A DNA stretch of 64,000 nt from an uncultured Gammaproteobacteria bacterium. Lineage in GTDB: Bacteria; Pseudomonadota; Gammaproteobacteria; QNFE01; CAZPSE01. The notes under the pieces are model-generated. The model saw nothing but the letters and a program-made list of their open reading frames with translations, did not search any database and was not told the DNA's origin. This document shows, one piece after another, positions 1,264 to 64,000 of the stretch. Every line of letters starts with the position of its first letter. Position 1 is the first letter of the stretch. Both the position numbers and the translations under genes were made by a program. The DNA lies in contig CAZPSE010000006.1 in the NCBI GenBank assembly GCA_964589575.1, positions 81-64,080 on the forward strand, given 5' to 3'.

Positions 1264-4200
1264 ATGTCAGATAAAAATCACGATACCGAAGAACTTGGTT
1301 TAGCTGGAAAACTTGCTAAAAACTTTATACATTCACCCTTATCACCGCTACTACTCATTGTTTCCTTAGCCGTTGGAATTATTGGTTTAATATTAACACC
1401 ACGTCAAGAAGACCCGCAAATTTCGGTACCTATGGTCGATATTTTTGTTGGTTATCCTGGTGCATCAGCTGATCAAGTTTCAACCTTAGTTGCCGTTCCA
1501 TTAGAACGAATGATGAGCGAAATAACAGGTGTTCGGCATGTTTATTCTGCCTCTCAAAGAGAAATGGGAATGGTGACCGTGCAATTTGAAGTAGGCCAAG
1601 AAATGGAAAAATCCATTTTTAAAGTTTATGACAAAATTCATTCTAATAAGGATGTTATGCCCGCAGGCGTACAAGGTGCTTTAATTAAACCAAAAGCCGT
1701 TGACGATGTACCAGCTGTTACTTTAACGTTGTGGTCAGAAGAGGTTGCTGATTTTGAATTGCGCTTGTTAGCATTGGATGTTTTACAAAAAATAAAAGAA
1801 ATACCAGACACAAGCGCAAGTTTTATAGTGGGTGGTCGTTCTAAACAGGTACGTATAGAACCCTTGCCAGAAAAACTAGCAGGTTACGGTGTAACTTTAG
1901 GTGCCCTAGCTAATACCATCAAAACAGCCAATTCAGAAATGGGAGTAGGCACGGTCGAAGCATGGGATTCATCATTTAGTATTTATACAGGGTCGTTTTT
2001 AACTAACGCAGCAGACATTGAAAAACTAGTCGTAGCCATTATTAATGGTGCGCCCGTATATATGAGTGATGTTGCCAATGTAATAGATGGCCCAGCTGAA
2101 ACCAAAAATTTAGTACATTACTATACAGGTAACGCCTATCAAGGTGATGCGAACCTCGATATGGGCGCGCCAGCGGTTACAATCGCCATAGCCAAGAAAA
2201 AAGGTAGTAATGGTGTCACCGTAGCACAAAACATTTTAGATAGAGTTGAGTCATTAAAAGGCACGCTAATACCCAATAACGTAATGGTAGAAATCACCCG
2301 TAATTACGGTGAAAGTGCAGACAAAAAAGTAAGTTCATTGCTTCAAAAATTATTTATTGCCACTGGCATCGTCGTATTGTTGGTTTGGGGGTTTTTAGGT
2401 ATTCAAGCTGCAACAGTTGTTTTAATTGTCATCCCCGTTGTAATATTAATAACTGTTTTTGCTGCGCTAGTACTGGGTTTGACTATTGATAGGGTTAGTT
2501 TATTCGCACTAATTTTCTCAATTGGAATACTAGTAGATGATGCTATTGTTGTGGTCGAAAATATCTATCGGCGATGGTTAATGCGAGGTGAAATTCATAC
2601 AGGAACATCTATAGATGCTGTTAGAGAAGTAGGAAACCCTACTATTTTAGCGACCTTTACAGTTATAGCAGCGTTAATGCCAATGGGTATGGTACGCGGA
2701 ATGATGGGTCCGTATATGAGCCCGATTCCTATATTGGGTTCAGTAGCCATGATATTTTCATTGTTTGCTGCATTTACTTTTACGCCTTGGTTGGTAATGC
2801 GTATAAAACCTTCTATGAAGCGTTTAAAACAAATGGAAGCAAAAGAGCATAAACAAGAAGTGTTTTATGAAAAATTGTATCGCTCAATTTTGATTCCATT
2901 AATTTCAAGCAAAGCAAAAGGGCGTCTATTTTTAACATTCTTGTTTGTCTTGTTTTTTGCAAGTTGTTCTTTGTTTTACTTTAATGTTGTAAAAGTAAAA
3001 ATGTTGCCATTAGACAATAAGCCAGAATTTAACGTGGTTATTAATTTCCCAGCGGGTACGGCACTACCTGTTACCGAAAATTTAATACGAAAGCTGTCTC
3101 ATAAAATAAAACAAATTGAAGAAGTAACCGCTTTGCAAACTTATGCAGGCACCGCATCGCCTTATAACTTTAATGGTTTGGTACGTCATACTTATTTACG
3201 AGAATCACCTTGGCAGGGCGATATACAAGTTCAGTTAACCGATAAAGAAACGAGAGAGCGCACAAGTCACGAAATAGCCGTAGCTGTACGCGCCATGGTT
3301 AGGCCTATTGTTAAAGCTTATGGTGCAAAAGTACAAGTAGTAGAAATGCCACCAGGTCCTCCAGTACTTCAATCTGTTGTTGCAGAAGTTTATGGACCCA
3401 CAGATGAAATTAGGCGACAAGTCGCGACAGATTTAACCGCTATGTTTGAAGAGGCTGAAAATTTAACAGATGTTGATAATTTAATGCAAAAAGAATATGA
3501 CGTTTGGCGTTTTGAAGTGAATACTGAAAAAGCAAACCGCCGTGGTGTTTCTGTTGAAGAAATTAATAAAAACTTGCTTATGGCAATGGGTGGTTTTGTT
3601 TTAGGCGACATTAAAGTAGGGCATGTATTAGAACCACGTGAAATTGTTTTACAAATACCCATGTCTGCAAGAGCAGAGTTTTCGAGAATAGGTACCTTGC
3701 CCATTATGAGTAGTCAAGGTTATACCATTCCACTTTCTGAACTGGGCGAATTTATAAAAGACAAACAAAATAAAATTATTTTCCATAAAGACTTAAGACC
3801 CGTAGAGTTTGTAACGGCAGAAGTTCAAGCACCATTACCTGCACCTGTATACGGCATGTTTGAGGTGGGCGATAAGTTGGACGATTATACCGCACCAGAT
3901 GGTGTTAAATTGTCGGGCGAATGGTTTGGCCCACCTGCAACATCGGATGTTTCAGGGTTTGAGTGGACAGGGGAGTGGACAGTAACCTTTGAAACATTTA
4001 GAGACATGGGTATAGCATTTGGAGGCGCAATTTTATTAATTTATATGTTGGTGGTTTGGGAGTTCGGTAACTTCACATTGCCAGCTATCATTATTTCTCC
4101 AATTCCTTTAACGTTAGTTGGTATCATTCCTGGTCACTGGATAATGGGGGCTGAGTTTACCGCAACATCAATGATTGGTTTCATTGCCTTGGCGGGGATA

Positions 4201-5031
4201 ATCGTCAGAAACTCGATATTAATTGTAGATTTTACCAATCAACGAGTTAGAGCTGGTGAAGAGTTAGTCGAGGCTGTGATTACATCTTGCAAAGTAAGAA
4301 CACGGCCAATTTTAATTACCGCTTTAGCTTTAATGGGCGGATCATTGGTTATTCTTGCTGATCCTATATTTCAAGGTATGGCAGTTTCATTGTTGTTTGG
4401 AATGTTTGTATCTACATTATTAACGCTTATTGTTATTCCATTAGGTTGTATTACTGCAAAGTCATCTTTTGTTTTTGATACTGACCCTGACAATGGAGGA
4501 TTTGGCGGAGGTGGACAAGTGTTGCCAAGCTCTACTCCTCCTAGTGATGCGCATGTATCTAAAGTAAAATCGTATGAACCCAGTATTATTGAAAAATTTA
4601 TTGGTTTGTTATCTATAATTGCTATATATATTGGGCTTTTATGGTCAATGTTAATGTCTATTATGCCCGCACCGATAAGAAACTTTTTTGAAAAAGTAAC
4701 AGGCTTTTTAGCCATTATTAAAATTTACTTAGGATTGTTGTTATCGCCTTTATTCGCCTTTTTTAAGTCTAAAGAGCCAGAGCCTACTGCTGTAAAAGCT
4801 CAAGTGCCTGTGCCTGCATCGACAAACACAGATACTAAGGCCAAAGAAGAAACTAAAGCCAAAGAAGACACTAAAGCCAAAGAAGACACTAAAGCCAAAG
4901 AAGACACTATTTCTAAAAAAAGCACATCGAAGAAAAAGGCTACTAGTAAAAAGAAAACAACATCAAGTAAAAAAACAACCAGCAAAAAAAATGTAAGAAG
5001 AGGGATTAAGCTTAAAAAAGATTTGGAGTAA
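1264..5031 (+). CDS. RND (AcrB/HAE-type) inner-membrane transporter with an atypical ~200-aa C-terminal extension and lysine-rich tail
   Basis: 1255 aa. The N-terminal TM1 plus large periplasmic loops and 12-TM architecture are recognisable as AcrB/CzcA family. After TM12 there are two extra hydrophobic segments and a TKAKED x4 repeat followed by an SKKK-rich tail. Confidence 0.85.
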   Translation: MSDKNHDTEELGLAGKLAKNFIHSPLSPLLLIVSLAVGIIGLILTPRQEDPQISVPMVDIFVGYPGASADQVSTLVAVPLERMMSEITGVRHVYSASQREMGMVTVQFEVGQEMEKSIFKVYDKIHSNKDVMPAGVQGALIKPKAVDDVPAVTLTLWSEEVADFELRLLALDVLQKIKEIPDTSASFIVGGRSKQVRIEPLPEKLAGYGVTLGALANTIKTANSEMGVGTVEAWDSSFSIYTGSFLTNAADIEKLVVAIINGAPVYMSDVANVIDGPAETKNLVHYYTGNAYQGDANLDMGAPAVTIAIAKKKGSNGVTVAQNILDRVESLKGTLIPNNVMVEITRNYGESADKKVSSLLQKLFIATGIVVLLVWGFLGIQAATVVLIVIPVVILITVFAALVLGLTIDRVSLFALIFSIGILVDDAIVVVENIYRRWLMRGEIHTGTSIDAVREVGNPTILATFTVIAALMPMGMVRGMMGPYMSPIPILGSVAMIFSLFAAFTFTPWLVMRIKPSMKRLKQMEAKEHKQEVFYEKLYRSILIPLISSKAKGRLFLTFLFVLFFASCSLFYFNVVKVKMLPLDNKPEFNVVINFPAGTALPVTENLIRKLSHKIKQIEEVTALQTYAGTASPYNFNGLVRHTYLRESPWQGDIQVQLTDKETRERTSHEIAVAVRAMVRPIVKAYGAKVQVVEMPPGPPVLQSVVAEVYGPTDEIRRQVATDLTAMFEEAENLTDVDNLMQKEYDVWRFEVNTEKANRRGVSVEEINKNLLMAMGGFVLGDIKVGHVLEPREIVLQIPMSARAEFSRIGTLPIMSSQGYTIPLSELGEFIKDKQNKIIFHKDLRPVEFVTAEVQAPLPAPVYGMFEVGDKLDDYTAPDGVKLSGEWFGPPATSDVSGFEWTGEWTVTFETFRDMGIAFGGAILLIYMLVVWEFGNFTLPAIIISPIPLTLVGIIPGHWIMGAEFTATSMIGFIALAGIIVRNSILIVDFTNQRVRAGEELVEAVITSCKVRTRPILITALALMGGSLVILADPIFQGMAVSLLFGMFVSTLLTLIVIPLGCITAKSSFVFDTDPDNGGFGGGGQVLPSSTPPSDAHVSKVKSYEPSIIEKFIGLLSIIAIYIGLLWSMLMSIMPAPIRNFFEKVTGFLAIIKIYLGLLLSPLFAFFKSKEPEPTAVKAQVPVPASTNTDTKAKEETKAKEDTKAKEDTKAKEDTISKKSTSKKKATSKKKTTSSKKTTSKKNVRRGIKLKKDLE
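4834..4905 (+). repeat. 4 x 18-bp perfect/near-perfect in-frame tandem repeat (actaaRgccaaagaagaM) encoding TKAKEE/TKAKED
   Basis: Read directly in the sequence. Units start at 4834, 4852, 4870 and 4888. Confidence 0.95.
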
Positions 5032-8933: not shown

Positions 8934-9021
8934 AAAAGCCCCTAAATCGTCGACCCCTTGCTTATTAGAAGTTGAAAAACCCCTAATAAATAAGCAAGGG
9001 GTCGACGATTTAGGGGCTTTT
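8934..9021. terminator. Perfect 33-bp-arm palindrome forming a long hairpin followed by a T-run; it embeds two inverted copies of the GTCGACCCCTTGC repeat
   Basis: aaaagcccctaaatcgtcgaccccttgcttatt ...loop... aataagcaaggggtcgacgatttaggggctttttt. Confidence 0.85.
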
Positions 9022-9092
9022 TTATGACGACAATATTTTATTAATATAAAATACCATGCTTAAAAATTAAAGCACAACACAAAGGTAATGTA

Positions 9093-16501: not shown

Positions 16502-16576
16502 AAGGGTTTACATGTTTATAATTGTTTTGTATTTTCTCACATAATATTAAAGTGTGTAATACTTTAATAAAAGTGC

Positions 16577-16603
16577 TGTTTTCGTCGACCCCTTGCTATA
16601 TCT
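16577..16603. repeat. Solo GTCGACCCCTTGC repeat copy in the map/rpsB divergent intergenic region
   Basis: tgttttcgtcgaccccttgctatatc. Its reverse complement matches 34641-34660 in 20 of 20 positions. Confidence 0.8.
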
Positions 16604-16794
16604 TTTGTATTTATATAGTTGAAATAAGTTGTATTTTTAGGCTGTTTTTGGTATAAATGCGCCTGCTTTGAAAGAGTGGTTCTTTTAAACAAAAATTCTC
16701 ACACGTAGTCAACATTAATCACGGGTGCTTTTATTAATTTAAAAAGTTGTGATTATGTTACGTGGACGTCTAACCCAATTCTATAGGAATTATT

Positions 16795-30442: not shown

Positions 30443-30600
30443 AGTCTGAATTAGAAGATAAAAAGAATTTTTTTCATATTTTATAGGGGCTTGCAGTGTA
30501 TGAATAGTTTTTTTGAACTGATTAAAAGCAAGGGTGTCCACGCATAATGCTCTTGCAATTGTGTGTACCCACATCCTTGTAGGCAACAAAAACGCCTGTT

Positions 30601-31071
30601 TTAAGCGCGTTGTTTTTCTTTAATTTCATCTAAACTTTTACATTCAATACATAAATCTGCAGTAGGGCGGGCCTCTAAACGACGAACGCCAATTTCTATT
30701 CCGCAAGACTCACAAAAACCATAGTCATCGTCTTCAATTAAACGAATGGTTTTATCTATTTTTTTAAGCAGTTTGCGTTCTCTGTCACGGGTACGCAGTT
30801 CTAAAGAAAACTCTTCTTCTTGCGTTGCTCTGTCGTTAGGGTCAGGGAAACTGCTTGCATCATCTTTCATATGCTCCATAGTTTTATCAACATCTTGCAT
30901 TAACGACGCTTTCCAAGAAACTAAAATAGAAGTGAAGTGATTTAACATGTCACCGCTCATGTATTCTTCGCTCTTTTTTTGAGTATACGGCTCGAAACTA
31001 AATCCTTGTAAGTTGGTTTTTTTATCTGGCATTATCATTCTCAATTTTTTTTGCAAGAGCTTTAATATCAA
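30601..31071 (-). CDS. dksA: RNA polymerase-binding transcription factor DksA
   Basis: C4 zinc finger [26 protein letters not shown], with acidic coiled-coil tip DxxDxA-like residues. Confidence 0.9.
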
Positions 31072-33014: not shown

Positions 33015-34496
<1,482 letters not shown>

Positions 34497-34533
34497 ACTT
34501 CGGTGATTCATCTTTCGATTTAGCTCGGCGTTA

Positions 34534-34592
34534 TTTTTTGTCACTAAACGGATCACATATTCGTTATATGCTCTCCATTTAGTGACAAAAAA
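34534..34592. repeat. 15-bp inverted repeat (ttttttgtcactaaa / tttagtgacaaaaaa) with a 29-nt spacer, downstream of guaB
   Basis: Read directly in the sequence. Confidence 0.8.
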
Positions 34593-34638
34593 TGCCTTGA
34601 TCTAAACCGAAATATGAACCATTTAGCATCATACCAAA

Positions 34639-34735
34639 GAGCAAGGGGTCGACGAAAACAGGCCTTTTTGTTGCCTACAGGGATGTAGGTACACAGAATT
34701 GCAGGAGCATTATGCGTGGAAACCCCTTGCTATCT
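34639..34735. repeat. MITE-like small element. GCAAGGGGTCGAC (left) and CCCCTTGC (right) are inverted termini that flank a hairpin-containing core, which is shared with 56939-56995
   Basis: Left end at 34641-34653 and right end at 34723-34730. The core cctacagggatgtaggtacacagaattg...atgcgtgg is about 85% identical to 56941-56985. Confidence 0.7.
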
Positions 34736-34776
34736 TATATTTATTAAATAAGTTCAATAGATTTTTAGAGACCAAC

Positions 34777-36351
34777 ATGACAGACATTCACAATCATAAA
34801 ATTTTAATTTTAGACTTTGGTTCGCAGTACACGCAGTTAATAGCAAGGCGTGTGCGTGAGGCAGGTGTGTATTGTGAGTTACGTTCGTACCAAATTACTA
34901 AAGATGAACTGGCAGACTTTGCACCTAATGGCATTATTTTATCGGGCGGGCCAGAGTCCGTCGGTTACGACAACGCCCCCAAGGTAGAAGATTGCATTTT
35001 TGCATCTGGCATACCGGTGTTGGGTATTTGCTACGGCATGCAGTCTATGGCGCATTATTATGGCGGTGTGGTACAAAAATCAGACAAGTCTGAATACGGC
35101 TTTTCAAAAGTGCGCGCGCGTAACCATTCGGCTTTATTAAAAAACATTCAAGACGAAGTAAACGAGCAAGGCCACGGGCTACTAGACGTATGGATGAGCC
35201 ACGGCGACCATGTTTCACAAATGCCAGACGGCTTTAAAATTATAGCCAGCACAACCAACGCACCAATAGCAGGTATAGCAGACGAGCAACGTAAATGTTA
35301 TGGCCTACAGTTTCACCCCGAAGTTACCCACACTAAACAAGGTGAACAAATTATAAGCCGTTTTGTGCATGACATTTGCGGTTGTGATGGACTGTGGACA
35401 CCCGAAAATATAATAGACAACAGCATAAAAACCATACGCAACAATGTAAAAAATGACCAAGTTATTTTAGGTTTATCCGGCGGGGTAGACTCGTCTGTAG
35501 TGGCCATGATGCTACACAAAGCCATAGGCAAACAGCTCATTTGTGTATTTGTAGACAACGGCCTACTCAGGTTACACGAAGGCGACCAAGTAATGAAAAT
35601 GTTTGCCGACAACTTAGGCATAAAAGTCATAAGGGTCGATGCCGAAGAGCGCTTTTTAAACAAACTAAAAGGCAAAAATGATCCCGAACAAAAACGTAAA
35701 ATCATCGGCAATTTATTTGTCGATATTTTTGAAGAAGAAGCGGCCAAATTACCCAATGCAAAATGGCTAGCGCAAGGCACAATCTACCCCGACGTTATCG
35801 AATCTGCAGGGGCAAAAACAGGTAACGCCCATTTAATAAAATCGCACCACAATGTAGGTGGCCTGCCCGACTACATGAAACTAAAATTGGTAGAACCACT
35901 ACGTGAACTGTTTAAAGACGAAGTACGCACCATCGGGCTAGAGCTGGGTTTAGCGTACGATATGGTTTACCGTCACCCATTCCCAGGGCCTGGTTTAGGA
36001 GTACGTATACTGGGCGAAGTTAAAAAAGAATTTGCCGACATACTGCGCCAAGCAGACCACATATTTATAGAAGAACTGTACAACCACGACTTGTACCACA
36101 AAGTATCGCAAGCCTTCACCGTATTTTTACCAATAAAATCCGTCGGTGTCACCGGTGACGGCCGTCGTTATAACTACGTTGTATCGCTAAGGGCGGTAGA
36201 AACCGTCGACTTTATGACTGCACGCTGGGCAAATTTACCTTATGAATTTTTAAGTTTGGTATCCACACGAATCATTAACGAGGTAGAGGACATATCGCGA
36301 GTAGTTTACGATATATCGGGCAAACCGCCCGCAACTATAGAGTGGGAATGA
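34777..36351 (+). CDS. guaA: GMP synthase (glutamine-hydrolysing)
   Basis: Conserved start [25 protein letters not shown]. The ORF opens at 34699 inside the repeat element. It has GATase and ATP-PPase domains and a C-terminal ATIEWE. Confidence 0.93.
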
Positions 36352-38786: not shown

Positions 38787-38810
38787 CCAAGGGGTCGACA
38801 GAAACAGGCA
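38787..38810. repeat. Solo copy of the GTCGACCCCTTGC-family repeat (inverted orientation: caaggggtcgacagaaacagg)
   Basis: Read directly in the sequence. Confidence 0.8.
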
Positions 38811-38851
38811 GTTTTGAGAGAATGGCACTGTATTTTTAACGGCTACGTTTT

Positions 38852-39295: not shown

Positions 39296-41205
39296 TGGAA
39301 ACCTGCAAACAAGTTTTTAGCGAGACAGGCCCATTAGTTAATGTTTTAGAAAACTACTCGCCCCGAAAAGAGCAATTAGCTTTAGCCACTAAAATAGAAG
39401 AGGTATTAGAAAGCAACCAAGTGTTAATTGGCGAGGCAGGCACAGGTGTGGGTAAGTCTTTAGCATACTTAGTACCTGTGTTGTTATCGGGCAAGCACAC
39501 TATTATTTCTACGGGTACTAAACATTTACAAGACCAGTTGTTTTATAAAGATGTGCCTATTGTAAAAAAAGCACTCGGTACAAATACACGCATATCTATG
39601 TTAAAAGGGCGTAAAAATTATTTATGTTTGCACCGTATGGACATGGCACGGCATAATTTTTTAACCCGCTTAAAAGAATATGCAGACCAGTTAAATGTAA
39701 TTGAAAATTGGTCGTACAAAACCAAAGTAGGCGAAATTACAGAAATAAGTGACGTTAAAGAAGACTCTCAAATTTGGCCATTGGTCACATCTACCACCGA
39801 TAATTGCATAGGGCAAGAATGCCCAAGCTGGGACGATTGTTTTGTAGTTAAAGCGCGTAAAAAAGCGCAAAAGTCTGACGTGGTGATTGTAAATCATCAT
39901 TTGTTTTTAGCCGACTTAGCTTTAAAGGACGAAGGTTTTGGCGAGATTTTACCCAACGCTCAAGCCTATATAATGGACGAGGCACATCAACTGCCCGAAA
40001 TTGCCGTTAATTTTTTTAGTACACGCATAAGCAATAAACACATTACCGAGTTGTGTCGCGACAGCATAGCCGAACAGCTTAACGAAGCACCAGAGATGAT
40101 GGAAATACGCTTAACCTGCGAAGATATTGAAGCCAATTTAAAAAAAGTAAGGCTGCAATTAGGCGAACAAAATGCCAAAAAACCGTGGGGGCAAATTGTT
40201 CATAAACCGTCCTTAAAGGTAGAAATGGTCGGTTTAATAAACCATTTTGAAAAGCTTAAAGCGCAATTAGAAATAGGTGCTGAACAAGGAAAAGGGTTAG
40301 AAAACTGTTTAGAAAGATGCTGTAACTTATTGGAATTTTTAAATAAATTTAATAATTTACAGTTTGAAGACCGTATTTTGTGGTTTGAATCTTGGAATAA
40401 TGGTTTTGCTTTTTATGCCACCCCGTACGAGATTGATAGCTTCTTTAAAAAGAAAATAGAACAACAATTATGCAGCTGGGTGTTTACCTCGGCTACCTTA
40501 TCGGTAGATAAAAACTTTAATCATTTTAAACAACAAATGGGCATAGATGGCGTTAACGAGTTAATACTAAACAGCCCGTTTGACTATAAAAATAATGCCC
40601 GTTTATACATACCTAACGACTTACCCTTACCAAGCGCCAATAATTACCATGTAGAACTTTTTAAACAAAGCCGAAAAATTATAAAAGCGGCAAAAGGGCG
40701 CACCTTTTTTTTATTTACCAGCTACCGTTCTTTAAATGCGGCGGCAGATTACTTTGAAAACTACACCGACTTTAACGTGTTTGTACAAGGTCGGGATGCC
40801 AAAATGAAGCTAATAGAAAACTTTAAAAAAACCGACAATGCTATTTTATTAGCCACATCGAGCTTTTGGGAAGGGGTCGATATACGCGGGCAAGCATTAA
40901 CCTGTGTAATTATAGAAAAGTTGCCCTTTGCATCCCCTGGTGATCCGGTATTAAAAGCACGCTTAGATTACATACAAAAAAATGGCGGCAATGCTTTTAT
41001 GGACTACCAAGTACCGCAAGCCATTATTAGCCTAAAGCAGGGCGCAGGGCGTTTAATACGCGACTATAGCGACAAAGGCTTATTAATGCTGTGCGACTCT
41101 CGGTTAGTTACCAAACCGTACGGAAAACTGTTTGTAAATAGCCTAAACGCCATGCCAAAAGTAAAAGACAGCCAACAGGCAGAAGCCTTTTTGGAAACCT
41201 TATGA
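39295..41205 (+). CDS. yoaA: DinG-family ATP-dependent DNA helicase, YoaA-like
   Basis: 636 aa with Walker A GEAGTGVGKS, a DEAH box (MDEAHQL) and a cysteine cluster for the Fe-S domain. Confidence 0.8.
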   Translation: METCKQVFSETGPLVNVLENYSPRKEQLALATKIEEVLESNQVLIGEAGTGVGKSLAYLVPVLLSGKHTIISTGTKHLQDQLFYKDVPIVKKALGTNTRISMLKGRKNYLCLHRMDMARHNFLTRLKEYADQLNVIENWSYKTKVGEITEISDVKEDSQIWPLVTSTTDNCIGQECPSWDDCFVVKARKKAQKSDVVIVNHHLFLADLALKDEGFGEILPNAQAYIMDEAHQLPEIAVNFFSTRISNKHITELCRDSIAEQLNEAPEMMEIRLTCEDIEANLKKVRLQLGEQNAKKPWGQIVHKPSLKVEMVGLINHFEKLKAQLEIGAEQGKGLENCLERCCNLLEFLNKFNNLQFEDRILWFESWNNGFAFYATPYEIDSFFKKKIEQQLCSWVFTSATLSVDKNFNHFKQQMGIDGVNELILNSPFDYKNNARLYIPNDLPLPSANNYHVELFKQSRKIIKAAKGRTFFLFTSYRSLNAAADYFENYTDFNVFVQGRDAKMKLIENFKKTDNAILLATSSFWEGVDIRGQALTCVIIEKLPFASPGDPVLKARLDYIQKNGGNAFMDYQVPQAIISLKQGAGRLIRDYSDKGLLMLCDSRLVTKPYGKLFVNSLNAMPKVKDSQQAEAFLETL

Positions 41206-50367: not shown

Positions 50368-50436
50368 ACTGCAAATGCCAGCAGTAACTTGGCAGCAAAA
50401 AGTGCAAATATAAAAAGCCCTAAAACGGCTAAAATC

Positions 50437-50449
50437 GTCGACCCCTTGC
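50437..50449. repeat. Solo GTCGACCCCTTGC repeat copy
   Basis: Read directly in the sequence. Confidence 0.8.
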
Positions 50450-50466
50450 TCTTATTTGAATGCAAA

Positions 50467-50632
50467 CCCTAATCCTCATATAGAAAATATAAAAATGCCA
50501 CAATCCTTTAATGCACCTAGTAAAACTAAAAATCGTCTCATCACCAATAAGGTGACCACGACGTTTTTAATTTCCCTATGCACATCAAATGATTGCACCT
50601 GTTTCACATTTCTATATGAGGATTAGGGTAAT
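50467..50632. repeat. Cassette bounded by 20-bp inverted repeats: ccctaatcctcatatagaaa (50467-50486) and tttctatatgaggattaggg (50609-50628). A third solo copy lies at 62176-62199
   Basis: Perfect 20-bp inverted repeats flank about 120 bp. The interior contains a possible 43-codon ORF (50495-50626). Confidence 0.75.
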
Positions 50633-50697: not shown

Positions 50698-52591
<1,894 letters not shown>

Positions 52592-55228: not shown

Positions 55229-55780
55229 ATGGACGATCAGCAAGCTGTAAAAAGTGTTAAAAAATGGATTAACGAATTCATTATCCCCAACAATGTTTGT
55301 CCATTCGCCTATAAAGAAATTCAAAACAAAACAACACGTTTTATCGTTAAACAACATAACTCAATTGAAGACACCTTATTTAACATAATAAATGAACTGA
55401 CGCAGTTAGATAAAGAGCTAGAAACCAATACTTCGCTATTTATTATTAACCAAGGGGTCGACGATTTTGATGCTTTTTTAGACTTGGTATCATTGGCAAA
55501 TGCGTTATTAGAAAAGCAAAACTATGCAGGCGTATATCAACTAGCAAGCTTTCACCCGCAATATCAGTTTGAAAATACCAAGCAAGACGCTGCAGAAAAT
55601 TTTAGCAATCGCGCACCATGTCCAGTTATACATATTTTAAGAGAAACAGCCGTTGAGCTAGCGGTTAAGCAACACATAGACGTACATCAAATACCCAAAG
55701 ATAATATCAAACGTTTAAATGAGATTGGTTTTAAAAAATTAAAAGGTGACTTAACAAAACTTATAGACATTAAGTTTTAA
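55229..55780 (+). CDS. Conserved hypothetical protein (DUF1415-like); contains an in-CDS GTCGAC repeat copy at 55453-55468
   Basis: 183 aa. I assign it to this family from memory only. Confidence 0.45.
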   Translation: MDDQQAVKSVKKWINEFIIPNNVCPFAYKEIQNKTTRFIVKQHNSIEDTLFNIINELTQLDKELETNTSLFIINQGVDDFDAFLDLVSLANALLEKQNYAGVYQLASFHPQYQFENTKQDAAENFSNRAPCPVIHILRETAVELAVKQHIDVHQIPKDNIKRLNEIGFKKLKGDLTKLIDIKF

Positions 55781-55826: not shown

Positions 55827-55903
55827 TGGCGCGCCCGGAAGGATTCGAACCTCCGACACCTTAGTTCGTAGCCAAGTACTCTATCCAGCTGAGCTACGGG
55901 CGC
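55827..55903 (-). tRNA. tRNA-Arg (anticodon ACG)
   Basis: Reverse complement is GCGCCCGTAGCTCAGCTGGATAGAGTACTTGGCTACGAACTAAGGTGTCGGAGGTTCGAATCCTTCCGGGCGCGCCA. It forms a cloverleaf with a 7-bp acceptor stem, a CUACGAA anticodon loop and an encoded CCA end. It closely matches E. coli tRNA-Arg(ACG). Confidence 0.92.
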
Positions 55904-56179: not shown

Positions 56180-56425
56180 TAACTATCCTACACAGTGGCA
56201 TATTGCTGATTAAAATCCCATCGCTGTACTTAAATGCTTTAACGTACAGGCGGGTAATTGTACTAAGTAAACAAAATCCATTTAAAGCATTTGCTATAAA
56301 TTACTAATTTAAACGTAATACCAGTAAACAATAGCAACGCCATAATACCACAATAAAAACCTATATGCGCATAATGTATATTATGTTAAATTGTATTTAT
56401 TCGTGTTTAAACGTTTTATGCTGAT

Positions 56426-56890: not shown

Positions 56891-56938
56891 AATTGATAAT
56901 AATACGTTAAAAAGATGCTCTAGCGTTGGCTACATGGA

Positions 56939-56995
56939 TGTAGGTACACAGAATTGAATGGAACACTATGCGTGCCACCCCTTGGTGGTTTAATA
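56939..56995. repeat. Second copy of the hairpin-containing repeat core (ctacatggatgtaggtacacagaattg...atgcgtg..ccccttgg), 40 bp upstream of mfd
   Basis: About 85% identical to 34676-34730. Confidence 0.7.
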
Positions 56996-57033: not shown

Positions 57034-60000
57034 ATGGCTAATTTGTTATACAAAAAAATGTTCCACAAAAATGGTGCAAATTGGTCTAATTTATTTGGCT
57101 GCAGTAAAAGCATTATTTTAAGTGAATTTGCTGCTAATTTCGACGGTTTAACCGTTTTAATATGTGCCACAACCAAAGAAGCTTTAGATTACGAAAGCGA
57201 ATTGCGTGTTTTTAATGCAGATTTAGACATATTTACTTTCCCAGACTGGGAAACCTTGCCTTACGACTATTTTTCGCCTCATCAAGATATTATATCAAAC
57301 AGGTTACGCACCCTATTCAAACTGCGCCAAGCTTCGTCTGGTATTTTAATTGTTCCTGTTTCAACTTTTTTAACTAAAGTTGCGCCTTGTGATTATATTT
57401 CTTCTAAAACGTTTATCTTTAAATTGGGTGACATTATTCACCTTAATGATTTTAAACACCATTTAGAATTTTCGGGCTACCGCCATGTTAAGCAAGTAAT
57501 GGAACATGGCGAATATTCGGTACGTGGTTCTATTATAGATATATATCCAATGGCATCGTATTTACCACTTCGTTTAGAGTTGTTTGATGATGAGCTGGAA
57601 TCCATACGCACTTTTGACGCAGACACTCAAATAACCATAGATAAAGTAGAAAAAATTGAAATTTTACCGGCTAAAGAGTTTCCGTTAGATGATGATGCAA
57701 TCGCCCTTTTTAGAACCAATATACGAGAAAAGTTTTCAGATTCTGGACGAAATTCAACAATTTACGAACAAGTTACCAATCGACAAGCCTTTCCTGGTAT
57801 TGAATATTACATACCGCTGTTTTTTAAAGAAATGGCAGGGTTATTTAGCTATTTCACTAATACGCACCAATACTTCATCACCGATAATGTTAACGAATCC
57901 GCTTTGGATTTTGTACACCAGTATGAGCACCGCTATGACCAGTACCGCCACAATACAGACCGACCACTATTAGAACCTAATCATTTACTATTAGATTTAG
58001 GCACAGTTGAAAAGCAATTAAAAAAAGCCATCACATTAACCAATAAAACGTTAAACAGTGATGATTTTGCAACAAAAGATTCGTTATTCATTTCAGAAAA
58101 TGATCAATCATCAATTGCACAGTTTTCTAACTTCTTAGATGGTTTTGATGGGCGCGCATTGATTGTTTCAGAATCATCTGGCAGACAAGAAGTTTTAAGC
58201 CATAAACTGCATGACTTGAAAATTAATTTTAAAAGAAAAAATAATTGGCAAGACGTTTTAAATTCAACCAACAAATTATCACTAATAACGGGCGTTATAG
58301 AAGAAGGCTGTTTTTTAGAAGATAAAAACCTATTAGTTATTAGTGAATATTATTTAACTGGCTATAAACCACGCCAAAAAGCCAGTAAATCTAAACGTAC
58401 TTTAGATTCTGAATCCATCATCCACAACCTGTCAGACCTTAAAGAAGGTGATGCGATTGTACATATAGACCACGGCGTGGGGCGTTACCGTGGTTTAAAT
58501 ATACTTAATATAAACGGGCAAGATGCCGAGTTTGTCACCCTGCACTATCAAGATGAAGACAAACTTTATGTACCGGTTGGCTCTTTACATTTAATTGCTC
58601 GTTACTCTGGCGCAAGCCACGACACCGCACCAATTAACCGTTTAGGTACAGATAAATGGAGCAAAGCCAAAACCAAAGCCGCCAAAAAAGTAAGAGATGT
58701 AGCAGCCGAACTGTTATTAATATACGCAAAACGCGAAGCCGCTATAGGTTATGCGGTAGATATTAATAACGATAATTACTTTAAGTTTAGTGAAGAATTT
58801 CCGTTTGAAGAAACGGTAGATCAATTAACTGCTATTAAACAAATAGAAGCCGACATGGCCATTAAAAAACCAATGGACAGGTTGGTTTGTGGCGATGTTG
58901 GTTTTGGTAAAACAGAAGTGGCTATGCGTGCGGCTTTTTTAGCCATAGACGGTGGAAAACAAGCCGCAATTTTAGTGCCAACTACCCTGCTTGCCCAACA
59001 ACACTACCAAAACTTTATAGACCGCTTTGCCAATTGGCCCTTTAATATAGCAGGCTTAACGCGTTTTACAAAAACCAAAGAGTTGGCCAAAATAGAAGCA
59101 GGTTTAGCCAATGGCACTATAGATATGGTTATTGGTACACACAAACTGCTATCTAAAAGCATTAATTACCATAACTTAGGCATTGTAATAATTGATGAAG
59201 AACACCGTTTTGGTGTTAGACACAAAGAACACATGAAAAGCATGCGCTCATCGGTAGATGTATTAACCCTTACCGCCACACCTATACCGCGTACGCTTAA
59301 TATGAGCTTAGCCGGCATGCGCGACTTGTCTATAATTACCACACCACCTGCAGAACGTTTGGCAATAAAAACATTAGTAAGTGAATGGAGCGATGAGCTA
59401 ATTGTAGAAGCCTGTCAGCGCGAATTAGCACGCGGTGGGCAAGTGTATTTTTTACATAACGAAGTAAAAACCATAGAACGTATAACCAAAAATTTAGAAG
59501 CATTAATGCCACAAGCTAAAATAAAATACGCACACGGGCAAATGCAAGAACGTACCTTAGAAACTATAATGGTCGACTTTTATCACCAAAAATTTAATAT
59601 TTTAGTAGCCACCACCATAATAGAATCTGGCATAGATATACCCACAGCCAATACCATTGTTATCAACCGAGCAGACAAATTAGGTTTGGCGCAATTGCAC
59701 CAAATACGTGGGCGTGTTGGTCGGTCACATCACCGTGCTTACGCCTTTTTACTTACCCCGCCCGAATCTTTATTAACCCGTGATGCAAAAAAACGCTTAC
59801 AAGCCATAGCATCTATGGAAGAGTTAGGTGTTGGTTTTACCTTAGCCACACACGACATGGAAATACGCGGCGCAGGAGAATTTTTAGGTGATGATCAGTC
59901 GGGGCAAATACAACAAATTGGTTTTACTTTATACAGCGAGTTATTAGACCGAGCCGTTAAAGCCTTAAAAGAAGGAAAAACATTTGATGTCGATGACGCA

Positions 60001-60444
60001 ATGGCCAACCCTGTAGAAATTGAATTGCATATATCATCTTTAATTCCTTCTGACTATATTTATGACGTACAAACACGGCTAATATTTTATAAACGCATCG
60101 CCAGTGCACAATCTATAGAGCAACTTAACCAGTTGCAAATAGAGTTAATAGACCGCTTTGGCTTATTGCCCGACGAGTTAAGAAACTTAGTTCACCAAAC
60201 CGAATTAAAATTAATTGCTATGCCTTTAGGCTTATTAAAAATAGACTTAAATGAAAAAGGCGGAAAGTTTGTATTTGATAAAACACCCAATATCAATACA
60301 ACAGAATTAATTACCATGATACAAAGCATGCCGAATATATATCGACTAGATGGTCAACAAATATTAAGATGTACTACAAAAATAGAAAAAGATTTTCAGC
60401 GCTATGAATATGCAAAATTTGTAATGGATAGACTAAAAAAATGA
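57034..60444 (+). CDS. mfd: Transcription-repair coupling factor
   Basis: 1136 aa with a UvrB-like N-terminus, an RNAP-interacting domain, DEEH helicase motifs and a TRG motif. Confidence 0.95.
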   Translation: MANLLYKKMFHKNGANWSNLFGCSKSIILSEFAANFDGLTVLICATTKEALDYESELRVFNADLDIFTFPDWETLPYDYFSPHQDIISNRLRTLFKLRQASSGILIVPVSTFLTKVAPCDYISSKTFIFKLGDIIHLNDFKHHLEFSGYRHVKQVMEHGEYSVRGSIIDIYPMASYLPLRLELFDDELESIRTFDADTQITIDKVEKIEILPAKEFPLDDDAIALFRTNIREKFSDSGRNSTIYEQVTNRQAFPGIEYYIPLFFKEMAGLFSYFTNTHQYFITDNVNESALDFVHQYEHRYDQYRHNTDRPLLEPNHLLLDLGTVEKQLKKAITLTNKTLNSDDFATKDSLFISENDQSSIAQFSNFLDGFDGRALIVSESSGRQEVLSHKLHDLKINFKRKNNWQDVLNSTNKLSLITGVIEEGCFLEDKNLLVISEYYLTGYKPRQKASKSKRTLDSESIIHNLSDLKEGDAIVHIDHGVGRYRGLNILNINGQDAEFVTLHYQDEDKLYVPVGSLHLIARYSGASHDTAPINRLGTDKWSKAKTKAAKKVRDVAAELLLIYAKREAAIGYAVDINNDNYFKFSEEFPFEETVDQLTAIKQIEADMAIKKPMDRLVCGDVGFGKTEVAMRAAFLAIDGGKQAAILVPTTLLAQQHYQNFIDRFANWPFNIAGLTRFTKTKELAKIEAGLANGTIDMVIGTHKLLSKSINYHNLGIVIIDEEHRFGVRHKEHMKSMRSSVDVLTLTATPIPRTLNMSLAGMRDLSIITTPPAERLAIKTLVSEWSDELIVEACQRELARGGQVYFLHNEVKTIERITKNLEALMPQAKIKYAHGQMQERTLETIMVDFYHQKFNILVATTIIESGIDIPTANTIVINRADKLGLAQLHQIRGRVGRSHHRAYAFLLTPPESLLTRDAKKRLQAIASMEELGVGFTLATHDMEIRGAGEFLGDDQSGQIQQIGFTLYSELLDRAVKALKEGKTFDVDDAMANPVEIELHISSLIPSDYIYDVQTRLIFYKRIASAQSIEQLNQLQIELIDRFGLLPDELRNLVHQTELKLIAMPLGLLKIDLNEKGGKFVFDKTPNINTTELITMIQSMPNIYRLDGQQILRCTTKIEKDFQRYEYAKFVMDRLKK

Positions 60445-62175: not shown

Positions 62176-62199
62176 ATTACCCTAATCCTCATATAGAAA
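62176..62199. repeat. Solo copy of attaccctaatcctcatatagaaa, abutting the mtnP start codon
   Basis: 24 nt identical to the reverse complement of 50609-50632. Confidence 0.8.
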
Positions 62200-62250
62200 T
62201 ATGCAAGAGGTACACATTTTATGTGCATAAGGAAACTAAAAACATCACTG

Positions 62251-64000
62251 TCACTTTTCTTCAACCCACCATGTTTTTAATATATAAGGCGTAGCCGCAT
62301 AATAAAGCGGTAAAACTTTAGGGCCTTTTAAGGTATTTTTATAAGCAACCCGGTGTTCAGCTATATACCAATTAGGTATTAAGTAATGCCCTGTTAACAA
62401 TACCCTGTCTAAAGCTTTAGATGCTGCTACTAAATTGACTCTATCGGTCGCATAAATAATTTCGTCTATCAAGTTATCAACCACAGCATTATTAATGCCC
62501 GCTAAATTTAAAGAGCCTTTTTTATTTGCAGCGATAGACGAAAAATAATTTTTCAATTCATTACCCGGTGATTGGGATTGACCGTAGCTCATCACCACCA
62601 TGTCAAAGTCAAAAGATTCTATTTTGTGCTGGTATAAGGTAGTGTCAATAGTTCGATAGCTTGCATGTATGCCCAATTTTTTTAGGTTACTTACAAAGGG
62701 TGCAACAATTCGTTCAAAACCTTTTTGTGCTAATAAAATAGTAAAATCTAAGGGTTCACCTTTGTCATTTTGTAACCGTCCTTTATTAATTTTCCAGCCT
62801 GCTTCTTTTAATAGTCGTGTTGCTTGACGTAAGTTTTTTCTTAAACTGTTGGGAAAAGCAGTAGAAGCCGGTTGCAATATTGTGTCAAAAACAGGCTCTA
62901 GCGTCGACCCCTTGCCTTGGTTTTTTATGTGTTTATTTAATAAGGCTAACTCTAAACCGGTCGGTTTACCTGTGGCTGCTAATGTACTATTGCTAAAATA
63001 GCTATTGCAGCGTTTATATTGGCCATAAAATAAGTTTTTATTAGACCATTCAAAATCTAACGCCATACTGATAGCTTGGCGTGTTTTAGCATTACTAAAC
63101 TTATCCAGTCGCGTATTAAATATAAAACCTTGCATACCAGCGTTATTACTGTGTTTTAGTGTATTTTTAACTAAGGTGCCATCTTTAAATTTAGGCCCTT
63201 TATAGTCTCTAGCCCATCGTTTTGAATGATTTTCAAGTATAAAATCAAACTCCCCTGCTTTAAAACCTTCTAAGGCTACGGTTAAATCTTTAAAGTATTT
63301 GTATGTAATGGTCTTAAAATTAAACATACCCCTGCGTACATTTAAGTCATTAGCCCAATAATTAGGGTTCTTTTTGTAAACAATAACTTTACCAGGTTGA
63401 AAAGAGTCAATTAAATAAGGCCCACTGGTAATGGGCTTTTCTAGCAGCGTTTTATTAAATGCTTTACCGTTTAGCCATGTTTTACTAAATATTGGCATAC
63501 CGCCAATAACAAGGTGAAGTTCTGGGTTGGTTTGTACAAAATTAAATTTAACTCTGTATTTATCTAAAACAACGGCGTTTTTAATGTCACCATAATATAT
63601 TTTAAATTGAGGGTGCGCCTCTTCACCCGTTAAGGTATCAAAAGAAAACTTAACATCGGCAGCGGTAACAGCGTCACCATTATTAAAACGGGCATGTTCA
63701 TTTATGGTAAAAATTACAGAAAGCCCATCACTGGCGAGTTTAATATCTTTTGCTAATAAGGCATACACACTAAAGGGCTCATCAAGGCTTTTTTCCATTA
63801 ATGATTCAAACATTAATAGGTTTAAACCATCTGCAGATATAGACTTTAATAAAAATGGGTTGAGTGTTTGAAACGTACCAAATGCAGATAAGTTAATGTT
63901 TCCATTTTTGGGCGCATTAGCATTTACATAGTCAAAATGAGAAAAACCGTCTTTGTATTTAGGCTCGTACCCTAATGCCATAGACGAGGCAGCAAAACTT
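62251..64000 (-). CDS. ABC transporter periplasmic substrate-binding protein, family 5 (oligopeptide/YejA-like); N-terminus beyond the window
   Basis: FDYVNANAPKNG mature-N-terminus motif typical of YejA/OppA-like SBPs. The reading frame stays open to position 64000. It contains an in-CDS GTCGAC repeat copy at 62894-62908. Confidence 0.75.
   Translation of the reverse strand, partial: SFAASSMALGYEPKYKDGFSHFDYVNANAPKNGNINLSAFGTFQTLNPFLLKSISADGLNLLMFESLMEKSLDEPFSVYALLAKDIKLASDGLSVIFTINEHARFNNGDAVTAADVKFSFDTLTGEEAHPQFKIYYGDIKNAVVLDKYRVKFNFVQTNPELHLVIGGMPIFSKTWLNGKAFNKTLLEKPITSGPYLIDSFQPGKVIVYKKNPNYWANDLNVRRGMFNFKTITYKYFKDLTVALEGFKAGEFDFILENHSKRWARDYKGPKFKDGTLVKNTLKHSNNAGMQGFIFNTRLDKFSNAKTRQAISMALDFEWSNKNLFYGQYKRCNSYFSNSTLAATGKPTGLELALLNKHIKNQGKGSTLEPVFDTILQPASTAFPNSLRKNLRQATRLLKEAGWKINKGRLQNDKGEPLDFTILLAQKGFERIVAPFVSNLKKLGIHASYRTIDTTLYQHKIESFDFDMVVMSYGQSQSPGNELKNYFSSIAANKKGSLNLAGINNAVVDNLIDEIIYATDRVNLVAASKALDRVLLTGHYLIPNWYIAEHRVAYKNTLKGPKVLPLYYAATPYILKTWWVEEK

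Follow-up and report, generated by a model that had tools for sequence, protein, structure and literature searches.

A repeat element between guaB and guaA of an uncultured gammaproteobacterium, a probable member of a dispersed mosaic intergenic family

The bacterial interspersed mosaic elements (BIMEs, with the repetitive extragenic palindrome, REP) of Escherichia coli and the neisserial intergenic mosaic elements (NIMEs; dRS3/RS) of Neisseria are mosaic repeats, and the Rickettsia palindromic elements (RPEs) are insertions that add residues. DNA uptake sequences are, to our knowledge, known in two families, the Pasteurellaceae and the Neisseriaceae. Those of the Pasteurellaceae, the uptake signal sequences (USS), and those of the Neisseriaceae, abbreviated DUS (PMC1626085, PMC2817400), occur about once per kb and combine a core and phased AT/T tracts with a strong consensus and inverted pairs (PMC1626085). 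Here we analyze a window of 64,000 nucleotides of DNA from an uncultured Gammaproteobacteria bacterium (contig CAZPSE010000006.1), in which a short element lies between guaB and guaA, at positions 34639-34735. An initial annotation, made from the sequence alone, had described it as a miniature inverted-repeat transposable element (MITE)-like element with inverted termini and a hairpin core that is duplicated upstream of mfd. We find that the feature is probably a member of a dispersed, non-autonomous family of mosaic intergenic repeats of the MITE, BIME or NIME type.

At guaA, the feature is a short unit placed head to head with a long unit of ~77 bp, the two overlapping in the near-palindromic AAAACAGGCCTTTTT. 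The short unit (34641-34670, plus strand), which is the left terminus of the initial annotation, consists of a 14-nt core, GCAAGGGGTCGACG (34641-34654), followed by AAAA, CAGGCC, and TTTTT. The long unit (copy 1; 34655-34731, plus strand) consists of the A/T-tract part that it has in common with the short unit, a hairpin module of ~47 nt, and a right arm, ACCCCTTGCT. The left inverted arm, AGCAAGGGGT (34640-34649, plus strand), pairs with ACCCCTTGCT at 34722-34731, so that the guaA copy has inverted arms of 9 to 10 bp. The core, the CCCCTTGC at 34723-34730, and the hairpin CCTACA-GGGA-TGTAGG at 34674-34689 are all present as first described. The statement that inverted termini flank the core is true of the guaA copy but does not extend to the copies at mfd and folD, and the inverted ends are found in copy 1 only because the short and long units overlap there.

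The long unit is present three times. Copy 2 (56910-56986, plus strand) lies upstream of mfd and is bracketed by a 7-nt direct repeat, TAATACG; copy 3 (30528-30602, minus strand) lies between dksA and folD and starts inside the dksA stop codon. Neither has GCAAGGGGTCGACG at its left. Two copies had been claimed initially, at guaA and mfd, and both are real, but the third was missed. The recurrence of the core upstream of mfd is borne out by an identity of 88% across 50 nt between 34670-34718 and 56925-56974 and by the 21-mer GGATGTAGGTACACAGAATTG, which is exact at 34681 and 56936 and had 0 matches in 100 shuffles. The same 21-mer is found with two mismatches on the minus strand at 30556-30576, and copy 3 is 91 to 92% identical to copy 1 over 69 to 71 nt. 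An nhmmer profile of the three long copies recovered them with E-values of 2e-26 to 7e-24 and had no other match in the window. As reported, the guaA and mfd copies are on the same strand (plus), 40 to 50 bp upstream of a gene: copy 1 ends 45 nt before the guaA ATG (34777), and copy 2 ends 47 nt before the mfd ATG (57034). Copy 3 ends 85 nt before the folD ATG (30442), and all three copies are in the sense orientation relative to the downstream gene.

The short unit is commoner. Allowing up to three mismatches, GCAAGGGGTCGACG has 10 matches in the window, with 1.46 expected, and 8 of these are real: six are exact, one has one mismatch, and one has two. Four are on the plus strand and four on the minus strand. 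The whole unit measures ~28 bp, and its density is 8 to 9 copies per 64 kb, about one per 8 kb. After every core come an A/T tract, a stretch of ~6 nt, and a T-run; the T-run begins 10 nt past the core in most copies and 11 to 12 nt past it in three. Among the 10- to 12-mers of the window, AAGGGGTCGA and words related to it are the most strongly over-represented. Apart from GTCGAC and the near-palindromic flank, the unit contains no palindrome. Intergenic DNA makes up 3.8 kb (6%) of the window and holds six of the eight short units together with all long copies. Two short units form an inverted pair at 8934-9023, between a dynamin-like gene and glyA, with cores at 8948-8961 (minus strand) and 8994-9007 (plus strand). 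The pair has perfect 33-nt arms followed by a T run, resembling a terminator, and its RNA fold has an energy of -61.3 kcal/mol and a z-score of -12.4. Solo copies lie at 16583, 38787, and 50436; the units are those at 16569-16596 (minus strand), in the divergent spacer between map and t44-rpsB; at 38787-38816 (plus strand), downstream of mrcA and with two core mismatches; and at 50412-50449 (minus strand), downstream of a nuoN-like gene. The GTCGAC terminus that had been taken as part of the element is thus a separate unit with eight copies, which also occurs solo, paired, and in genes.

Both ends of the short unit, read on the opposite strand, recur in the long unit: AAAACAGGCnTTTT(C)GT at one end and CGT...CCCCTTGCT at the other, with an extra ~47 nt between them in the long unit. 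The ends of the long unit thus resemble those of an inverted short unit, and its middle is the hairpin module; the short forms would be deletion derivatives of the long forms.

We then compared the junction with that of three relatives found by GuaA identity (L002, 90%; L003, 85%; L005, 82%). In the window, guaB (33042-34496) and guaA (34777-36351) are separated by 34497-34776, a spacer of 280 bp, as had been noted. The spacer of the closest relative, L002, is 139 nt long, is alignable on both sides of the site, and shows no trace of the element. In L003 and L005, guaB and guaA are about 2 to 3 nt apart and the element is absent. Absence from this junction in all three relatives argues for an insertion and against a conserved regulator. 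A search of 43 kb of the relatives' contigs found no long copy and no intergenic short unit; the only 14-mers there are the orthologs of two in-gene copies, described below. Judged from these alignments, the guaA feature is a mosaic repeat, recently inserted and specific to this lineage. The regulator common to guaA and mfd that the initial annotation suggested is unlikely, given that guaB and guaA of close relatives lie ~3 bp apart with no element between them. Chance similarity had been offered as the alternative for an element with neither further copies nor conservation in relatives; the element is indeed absent from the guaB-guaA junction of the three closest relatives found, but a further copy is present in the window.

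In the mechanism that we favor, the guaB-guaA junction, tight in relatives, received the block by insertion. The family would have spread by duplication, either through transposition in trans or through recombination between short repeats. At guaA, the block would most likely be passenger DNA transcribed within the guaBA mRNA. Pairing of its arms there would give a stable stem-loop, with possible effects on mRNA stability or read-through. Another junction, between the SBP and MTAP genes, is 4 nt long in a relative with 81% identity (L129) and 75 nt long in the window. The filler is a third repeat family of ~70 nt, with 87% identity between copies, at 50563-50632 (plus strand), 62176-62243 (minus strand), and 50466-50486; a copy adjoins the solo short unit at 50412-50449. 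This third family ends in TTTCTATATGAGGATTAGGGTAATATG, which resembles a Shine-Dalgarno sequence with a start codon, and one copy forms the start region of MTAP. Taken as a plain repeat, the element at guaA matters little, other than to show that the tight operon junctions of a small low-GC genome are expanded by mosaic repeats and to warn against reading such elements as shared regulators.

The likeness to BIMEs and NIMEs lies in the arrangement: short extragenic units occur solo, in inverted pairs, or combined with other conserved modules, in multiple intergenic copies that can form terminator-like hairpins and whose presence varies between relatives. The sequences are unrelated, however. 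The unit described here is not an imperfect palindrome with a 5' GTAG, two of its copies lie in genes and are conserved, and no REP-associated tyrosine transposase (RAYT) was seen. When the element was tested as a REP, the hairpin was found to have GTAG in its stem, and no RAYT was present among the open reading frames (ORFs) covered by our scans for RAYT and competence genes (~39 of ~60 in the window).

Among MITEs, the Correia elements of Neisseria and the enterobacterial repetitive intergenic consensus (ERIC), or intergenic repeat unit (IRU), are similar in size (~90 nt here and 215 to 370 nt in the relatives described below), in the one copy with inverted ends, in insertion at an operon junction, in cotranscription of a stem-loop, and in having both long and short variants. 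They differ in that no consistent target duplication is found here and two of the three copies have no inverted ends. A classical MITE would be a deletion derivative of an insertion sequence (IS), mobilized via terminal inverted repeats and accompanied by a target-site duplication. This would account for the inverted ends of the guaA copy, for the closest relative's spacer, which is empty and alignable on both sides, and for the TAATACG repeat flanking the mfd copy. The Pseudoalteromonas relatives, which appear to lie within a ~370-nt element with outer inverted repeats (recognized by eye), fit as well, and the copies, three long and eight short in 64 kb, are both multiple and present or absent between relatives. 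The left repeat, however, is missing in two of three long copies, and the arm also occurs solo, in opposite-polarity pairs, and within genes. No partner IS was seen in the window. A direct repeat was sought around copies 1 and 3 and none was found, so that the check for target-site duplications proposed at the outset yields TAATACG at copy 2 only and no consistency across copies. We consider a classical MITE quite unlikely. The initial idea of a mobile miniature element holds insofar as the element is multi-copy, inserted, and absent in relatives, but not as a MITE in the strict sense.

Relatives of the long unit were found in Alteromonadales. In a blastn search against plasmids, Pseudoalteromonas chromids matched over CTTTTTGTTGCCTACAGGGATGTAGGTA. 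The Pseudoalteromonas element is intergenic and ~215 nt long, has terminal inverted arms CTAGGGGCGATT and AATCGCCCCTAG, and occurs in 5 to 13 places per chromid; Catenovulum and Saccharobesus have partial matches to it. It has long and short forms, set apart by modules of ~47 nt, and the larger versions, about 215 to 370 nt, contain four GGA-loop hairpins. The window module is colinear with the larger element at that element's first and last hairpins and looks like a version that has lost the middle. A hidden Markov model (HMM) built from the multi-copy elements of Pseudoalteromonas and Catenovulum alone placed the three long copies ahead of everything else in the window, with E-values of 2e-4, 6.5e-3, and 0.038. 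These sequence matches suggest that the wider family consists of multi-copy non-autonomous elements of marine Gammaproteobacteria.

The Pseudoalteromonas element apparently lies within a ~370-nt unit, whose outer inverted repeats, AGGGTCTGTT and AACAGACCCT, were judged by eye. Its loci include L159 1343-1712, L160 18538-20170, and L166 20001-20219; one copy is interrupted by an IS4 insertion, and one lies ~260 nt from the start of cstA. A literature search with the element sequences returned cloning primers or nothing, and no paper on the Pseudoalteromonas element was found. A permissive Rfam scan of this relative gave noise only. In viral scans, the bare 14-mer had chance matches and neither specific pattern had any; a phage collection had no match, and a collection of genome contigs had one chance match (Clostridium) to the core 20-mer. 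A metagenome scan with the 28-bp word returned 26 single matches, nearly all in DNA of 45 to 68% GC, which is the chance level. One low-GC contig matched (L151; OFBJ01000870.1), a 3-kb contig of 39% GC with the exact 14-mer and matching flanks, AGAGCAAGGGGTCGACGCTACAGCACCTTTTTT, at 2860-2890, directly 3' of guaB. Its IMPDH is 56% identical to that of the window, and this copy could be horizontal spread or chance.

Two of the eight short units lie within genes. One is in a DUF1415 gene (55450-55479, plus strand), where it is read in the frame Q G V D D F, and the other is in an SBP_bac_5 (YejA-like) gene (62888-62915, minus strand), in the frame G K G S T. QGVDDF is native to the entire DUF1415 protein family, and therefore the word is not an insertion. 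GKGST sits in a variable loop of the YejA-like binding protein, and the alignment is ungapped at the word. RPEs are likewise small repeat copies in frame in protein-coding genes, but the protein alignments of the two genes contain no additional residues at the word. The DNA of the word is the same in DUF1415 homologs of 67% and 48% identity and in SBP homologs of 81% and 72% identity, and it recurs in L127, L128, L129, L130, and L158. Gene-wide, the same codon is used for only 44 to 62% of identical residues, and neighboring synonymous sites differ. The codons of the word are rare in the window's genome (GGG, 0.12; GTC, 0.08; AAG, 0.12; TCG, 0.14; ACG, 0.13). A 14-mer held in rare codons of two unrelated genes, in relatives of 48 to 81% protein identity, would point to a DNA signal, and by analogy this in-gene pattern is similar to that of DNA uptake sequences. 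The yoaA gene contains a degenerate copy, GGAAGGGGTCGATA, at 40869-40882, in the frame E G V D, as in the DUF1415 copy.

The short unit could be such a signal at the DNA level, kept by selection or molecular drive, either as an uptake sequence or as a site for a chromosome-organizing protein. The left terminus at guaA would be one such site, and the long unit would carry a degenerate one. Its architecture is USS-like, with a core, an AT-rich segment 3' of it, and a T-run one helical turn on, which gives two phased AT/T tracts; the consensus is strong, six of the eight copies being exact. Copies occur in both orientations with no strand bias and include one close inverted pair, which is terminator-like, as in the gene-end pairs of USS and DUS. 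They are enriched in non-coding DNA and yet are also in genes, where they are not insertions, are found in relatives as well, and are kept in rare codons over a baseline codon identity of 0.44 to 0.62. This likeness is that of the short unit only. Its density, on the other hand, is ~8-fold lower than that of USS and DUS (~1 per 8 kb versus ~1 per kb), and it is not abundant in relatives: 43 kb of their contigs had only the two orthologous in-gene copies, one more, intergenic, is in the separate contig L151, and the metagenome matches are essentially chance. The intergenic copies also have flanks such as GAAAACAGGC in common, a sign that they arose by copying and not in place. The arms of the Alteromonadales elements differ in sequence and covary as a helix, and there were no competence genes among the scanned ORFs of the window. 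The 28-bp word GCAAGGGGTCGACG(N10)TTTT may, by analogy, resemble a DNA signal of the uptake kind in a lineage outside the two known families, but on balance a DNA-level signal is an unlikely account of the short unit.

A dispersed, non-autonomous mosaic repeat remains the reading that we prefer, and several points weigh against it. The in-gene 14-mers appear from their codons to be under nucleotide-level constraint in relatives, which would not be expected of a purely selfish repeat. The window showed no transposase, IS, or, among the ~39 of its ~60 ORFs that were scanned, RAYT, and with no consistent target-site duplication, the spreading mechanism is unsupported. The long and short copies were counted in 64 kb of the source genome. 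The homology to Alteromonadales rests on ~50 nt with modest E-values, and the likeness of the arms was judged by eye only. A cis-regulatory role would also agree with the placement of all three long copies, in sense orientation and 45 to 85 nt before a start codon.

The hairpin of the long unit bears a likeness to sites bound by the RNA-binding protein CsrA. Hairpin 1 (34668-34694, plus strand) has a 10-bp stem formed by TTGCCTACA and TGTAGGTA(C)A around a GGGA loop at 34680-34683 and presents ACA-NGGA-UGU. The consensus for CsrA obtained by systematic evolution of ligands by exponential enrichment (SELEX) is RUACARGGAUGU; its ACA and GGA are fully conserved, and the GGA sits in the loop of a hairpin (PMC4347634). 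The three window copies match this consensus at 11/12, 11/12, and 10/12 positions (11/12 at guaA), with GGA in a tetraloop; they are its best matches in the window and include the sole ones with at most one mismatch. The Pseudoalteromonas copies have four hairpins, with tetraloops UGGA, GGAA, UGGA, and AGGA. Across 11 modules, hairpin 1 is 96% paired, and the loop and the closing CA/UG pairs are invariant. Two of its pairs show compensatory changes, from C-G to U-A and from A-U to G-C, and the covariation score was reached by 0 of 500 shuffles. Copies 1 and 2 have a second GGA, 22 nt further downstream; it is poorly structured in copy 2 and lost in copy 3, which has AAGA. In copy 1, this second motif, TGC-AGGA-GCA (34700-34709, plus strand), could form a mini-hairpin, as predicted from the sequence, and contains a Shine-Dalgarno-like AGGAG. 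The ATG that follows at 34712 opens an unconserved mini-ORF of 11 codons.

When transcribed, the hairpin module may be bound by CsrA. The ~47-nt module would then be a CsrA/RsmA-binding RNA element, which is compatible with its belonging to a repeat family. Sense modules in the guaBA, dksA-folD, and mfd mRNAs would recruit a CsrA dimer through the two GGAs and alter translation or stability downstream, or the copies would jointly titrate CsrA as a dispersed sponge. The presence of ACA, GGA, and UGU with GGA in the loop of the three window copies, the four GGA tetraloop hairpins of the Alteromonadales relatives, and the covariation of hairpin 1 are all as such an element would have it. G-U pairs occur in the hairpin as read on this strand only, which points to RNA; the three window copies are all sense; and one Pseudoalteromonas copy is next to cstA. 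However, none of the GGA motifs reaches into the Shine-Dalgarno sequence of guaA, mfd, or folD, and the second GGA is missing from copy 3 and has poor structure in copy 2. Some Pseudoalteromonas loops are mutated (UGAA, UAGA, or AUAAUAU), and copies in Alteromonadales are found either way round with respect to their neighbors. There is no csrA gene in the 64-kb window, and close relatives do not have the element. The match came to light after trials of many other motifs, and we treat it as a lead, with binding predicted from sequence; CsrA binding by the module is a tentative proposal that we would not yet favor.

The RNA sponges CsrB and RsmZ, like CsrA/RsmA sites in general, also carry GGA in loops, and the four GGA tetraloop hairpins of the larger relatives recall them. 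They are one or a few GacA-controlled genes, whereas the copies here are many, dispersed, and in both orientations; no Rfam model of the Csr/Rsm group matched, including those of CsrB and RsmX/Y/Z. It is doubtful that the ~47-nt module is a mobile CsrA-binding cassette that copying has brought into new transcripts, and into larger repeats, throughout marine Gammaproteobacteria. If it were, spread of the repeat would rewire or buffer the Csr regulon. Should the CsrA-type hairpin hold, selfish DNA could plug genes into a global RNA-binding regulator or act as a sponge for it. The initial annotation had raised a shared cis-regulatory element; a cis-regulatory RNA module gains some weight from the hairpin, a CsrA-type site that is conserved and covaries in distant relatives. 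A regulator shared by guaA and mfd finds no support in the evidence.

We also considered that each copy is an independently transcribed small RNA gene, a module likewise proposed at first. The hairpin is stable and conserved, and the whole-element RNA fold of copy 1 has an energy of -38.8 kcal/mol and a z-score of -4.3. Copies 2 and 3, however, have z-scores of +0.8 and -0.7 and fold no better than shuffled sequence. A scan for promoter-like or terminator-like sites flanking the element found none, no Rfam family fits, and relatives do not carry the element, which makes small RNA genes highly improbable. At the gathering threshold, an Rfam scan of the whole window returned tRNA and t44 only; permissive scans of the three copies, with E-values up to 10, gave noise and no match to CsrB or RsmX/Y/Z.

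Several other candidates were rejected. An outward sigma-70 promoter at the right end had inconsistent hexamer spacing between copies, and the promoter scan was empty. Sigma-32-like and sigma-54-like readings of CCCCTTGC each fit at most two of the six plus-strand CCCCTTGC occurrences checked. A purine or one-carbon riboswitch, which the neighboring guaA, folD, and glyA might have suggested, had no Rfam match and is absent in relatives. The PurR box, integron attC, FtsK-orienting polar sequences (KOPS), Chi, and matS misfit in sequence or polarity. A conserved leader peptide was dismissed since the mini-ORFs, one of which encodes MRGHPCF, have only MR in common. The N-terminal extension of GuaA in 550-amino-acid homologs is unrelated. 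ERIC was rejected because the Pseudoalteromonas relative, searched by blastn in 5,426 E. coli genomes, had no match. The reverse strand of the long unit holds CGCATAATG, which is similar to a XerC arm. As a Xer/dif-like site of an integrative mobile element exploiting Xer (IMEX), this was rejected: the 9-nt XerC-like stretch is on the reverse strand only and has no XerD arm, and the true dif is at 56364-56391.

The guaB-guaA spacer contains another inverted repeat. It had been reported as a 15-bp repeat and is real, but it spans 34533-34593 with arms of 28 nt that are 86% complementary. This AT-rich hairpin has an RNA fold z-score of -7.1. It is kept in the 90% relative (L002 905-962) with a different inner stem sequence, compensatory changes relative to the window, and a z-score of -8.8, and has no counterpart in the 85% and 82% relatives. 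It is a second palindromic insert, independent of the repeat element.

The window has a G+C content of 37%. Besides guaB, guaA, and mfd (57034-60444), it contains folD, dksA, xseA, and a gene for a SoxAX-binding protein, a gene content that indicates, as read from the sequence, a low-GC sulfur-oxidizing gammaproteobacterium. The dif site at 56364-56391, TATGCGCATAATGTATATTATGTTAAAT, is near-perfect, and the cumulative GC skew over the whole window reaches its maximum at ~52 to 56 kb, which places the replication terminus within the window. The long copy near mfd is ~520 bp away from dif.

A few other observations were made in the window. The serS gene is broken into two ORFs, 50698-51351 and 51390-51971, and its frame is restored by one extra A in the run TTCAAATAGG (region 51340-51395); the split is either a frameshift or a homopolymer assembly error. 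Four 18-nt tandem repeats (AGAMACTAAAGCCAAAGA) lie at 4830-4919, at the 3' end of an AcrB-family gene (1264-5031). The t44 RNA upstream of rpsB scored 46 bits against a gathering score of 44, and the T44 and tRNA entries are at 16680-16774 and 55830-55903; a tRNA gene on the minus strand lies beside the terminator 3' of the DUF1415 gene. Further over-represented words of the window are TAATGCCA/TGGCATTA, with 23 copies, TGGCATTAA, with 12, and CGCTTTAG, with 18.

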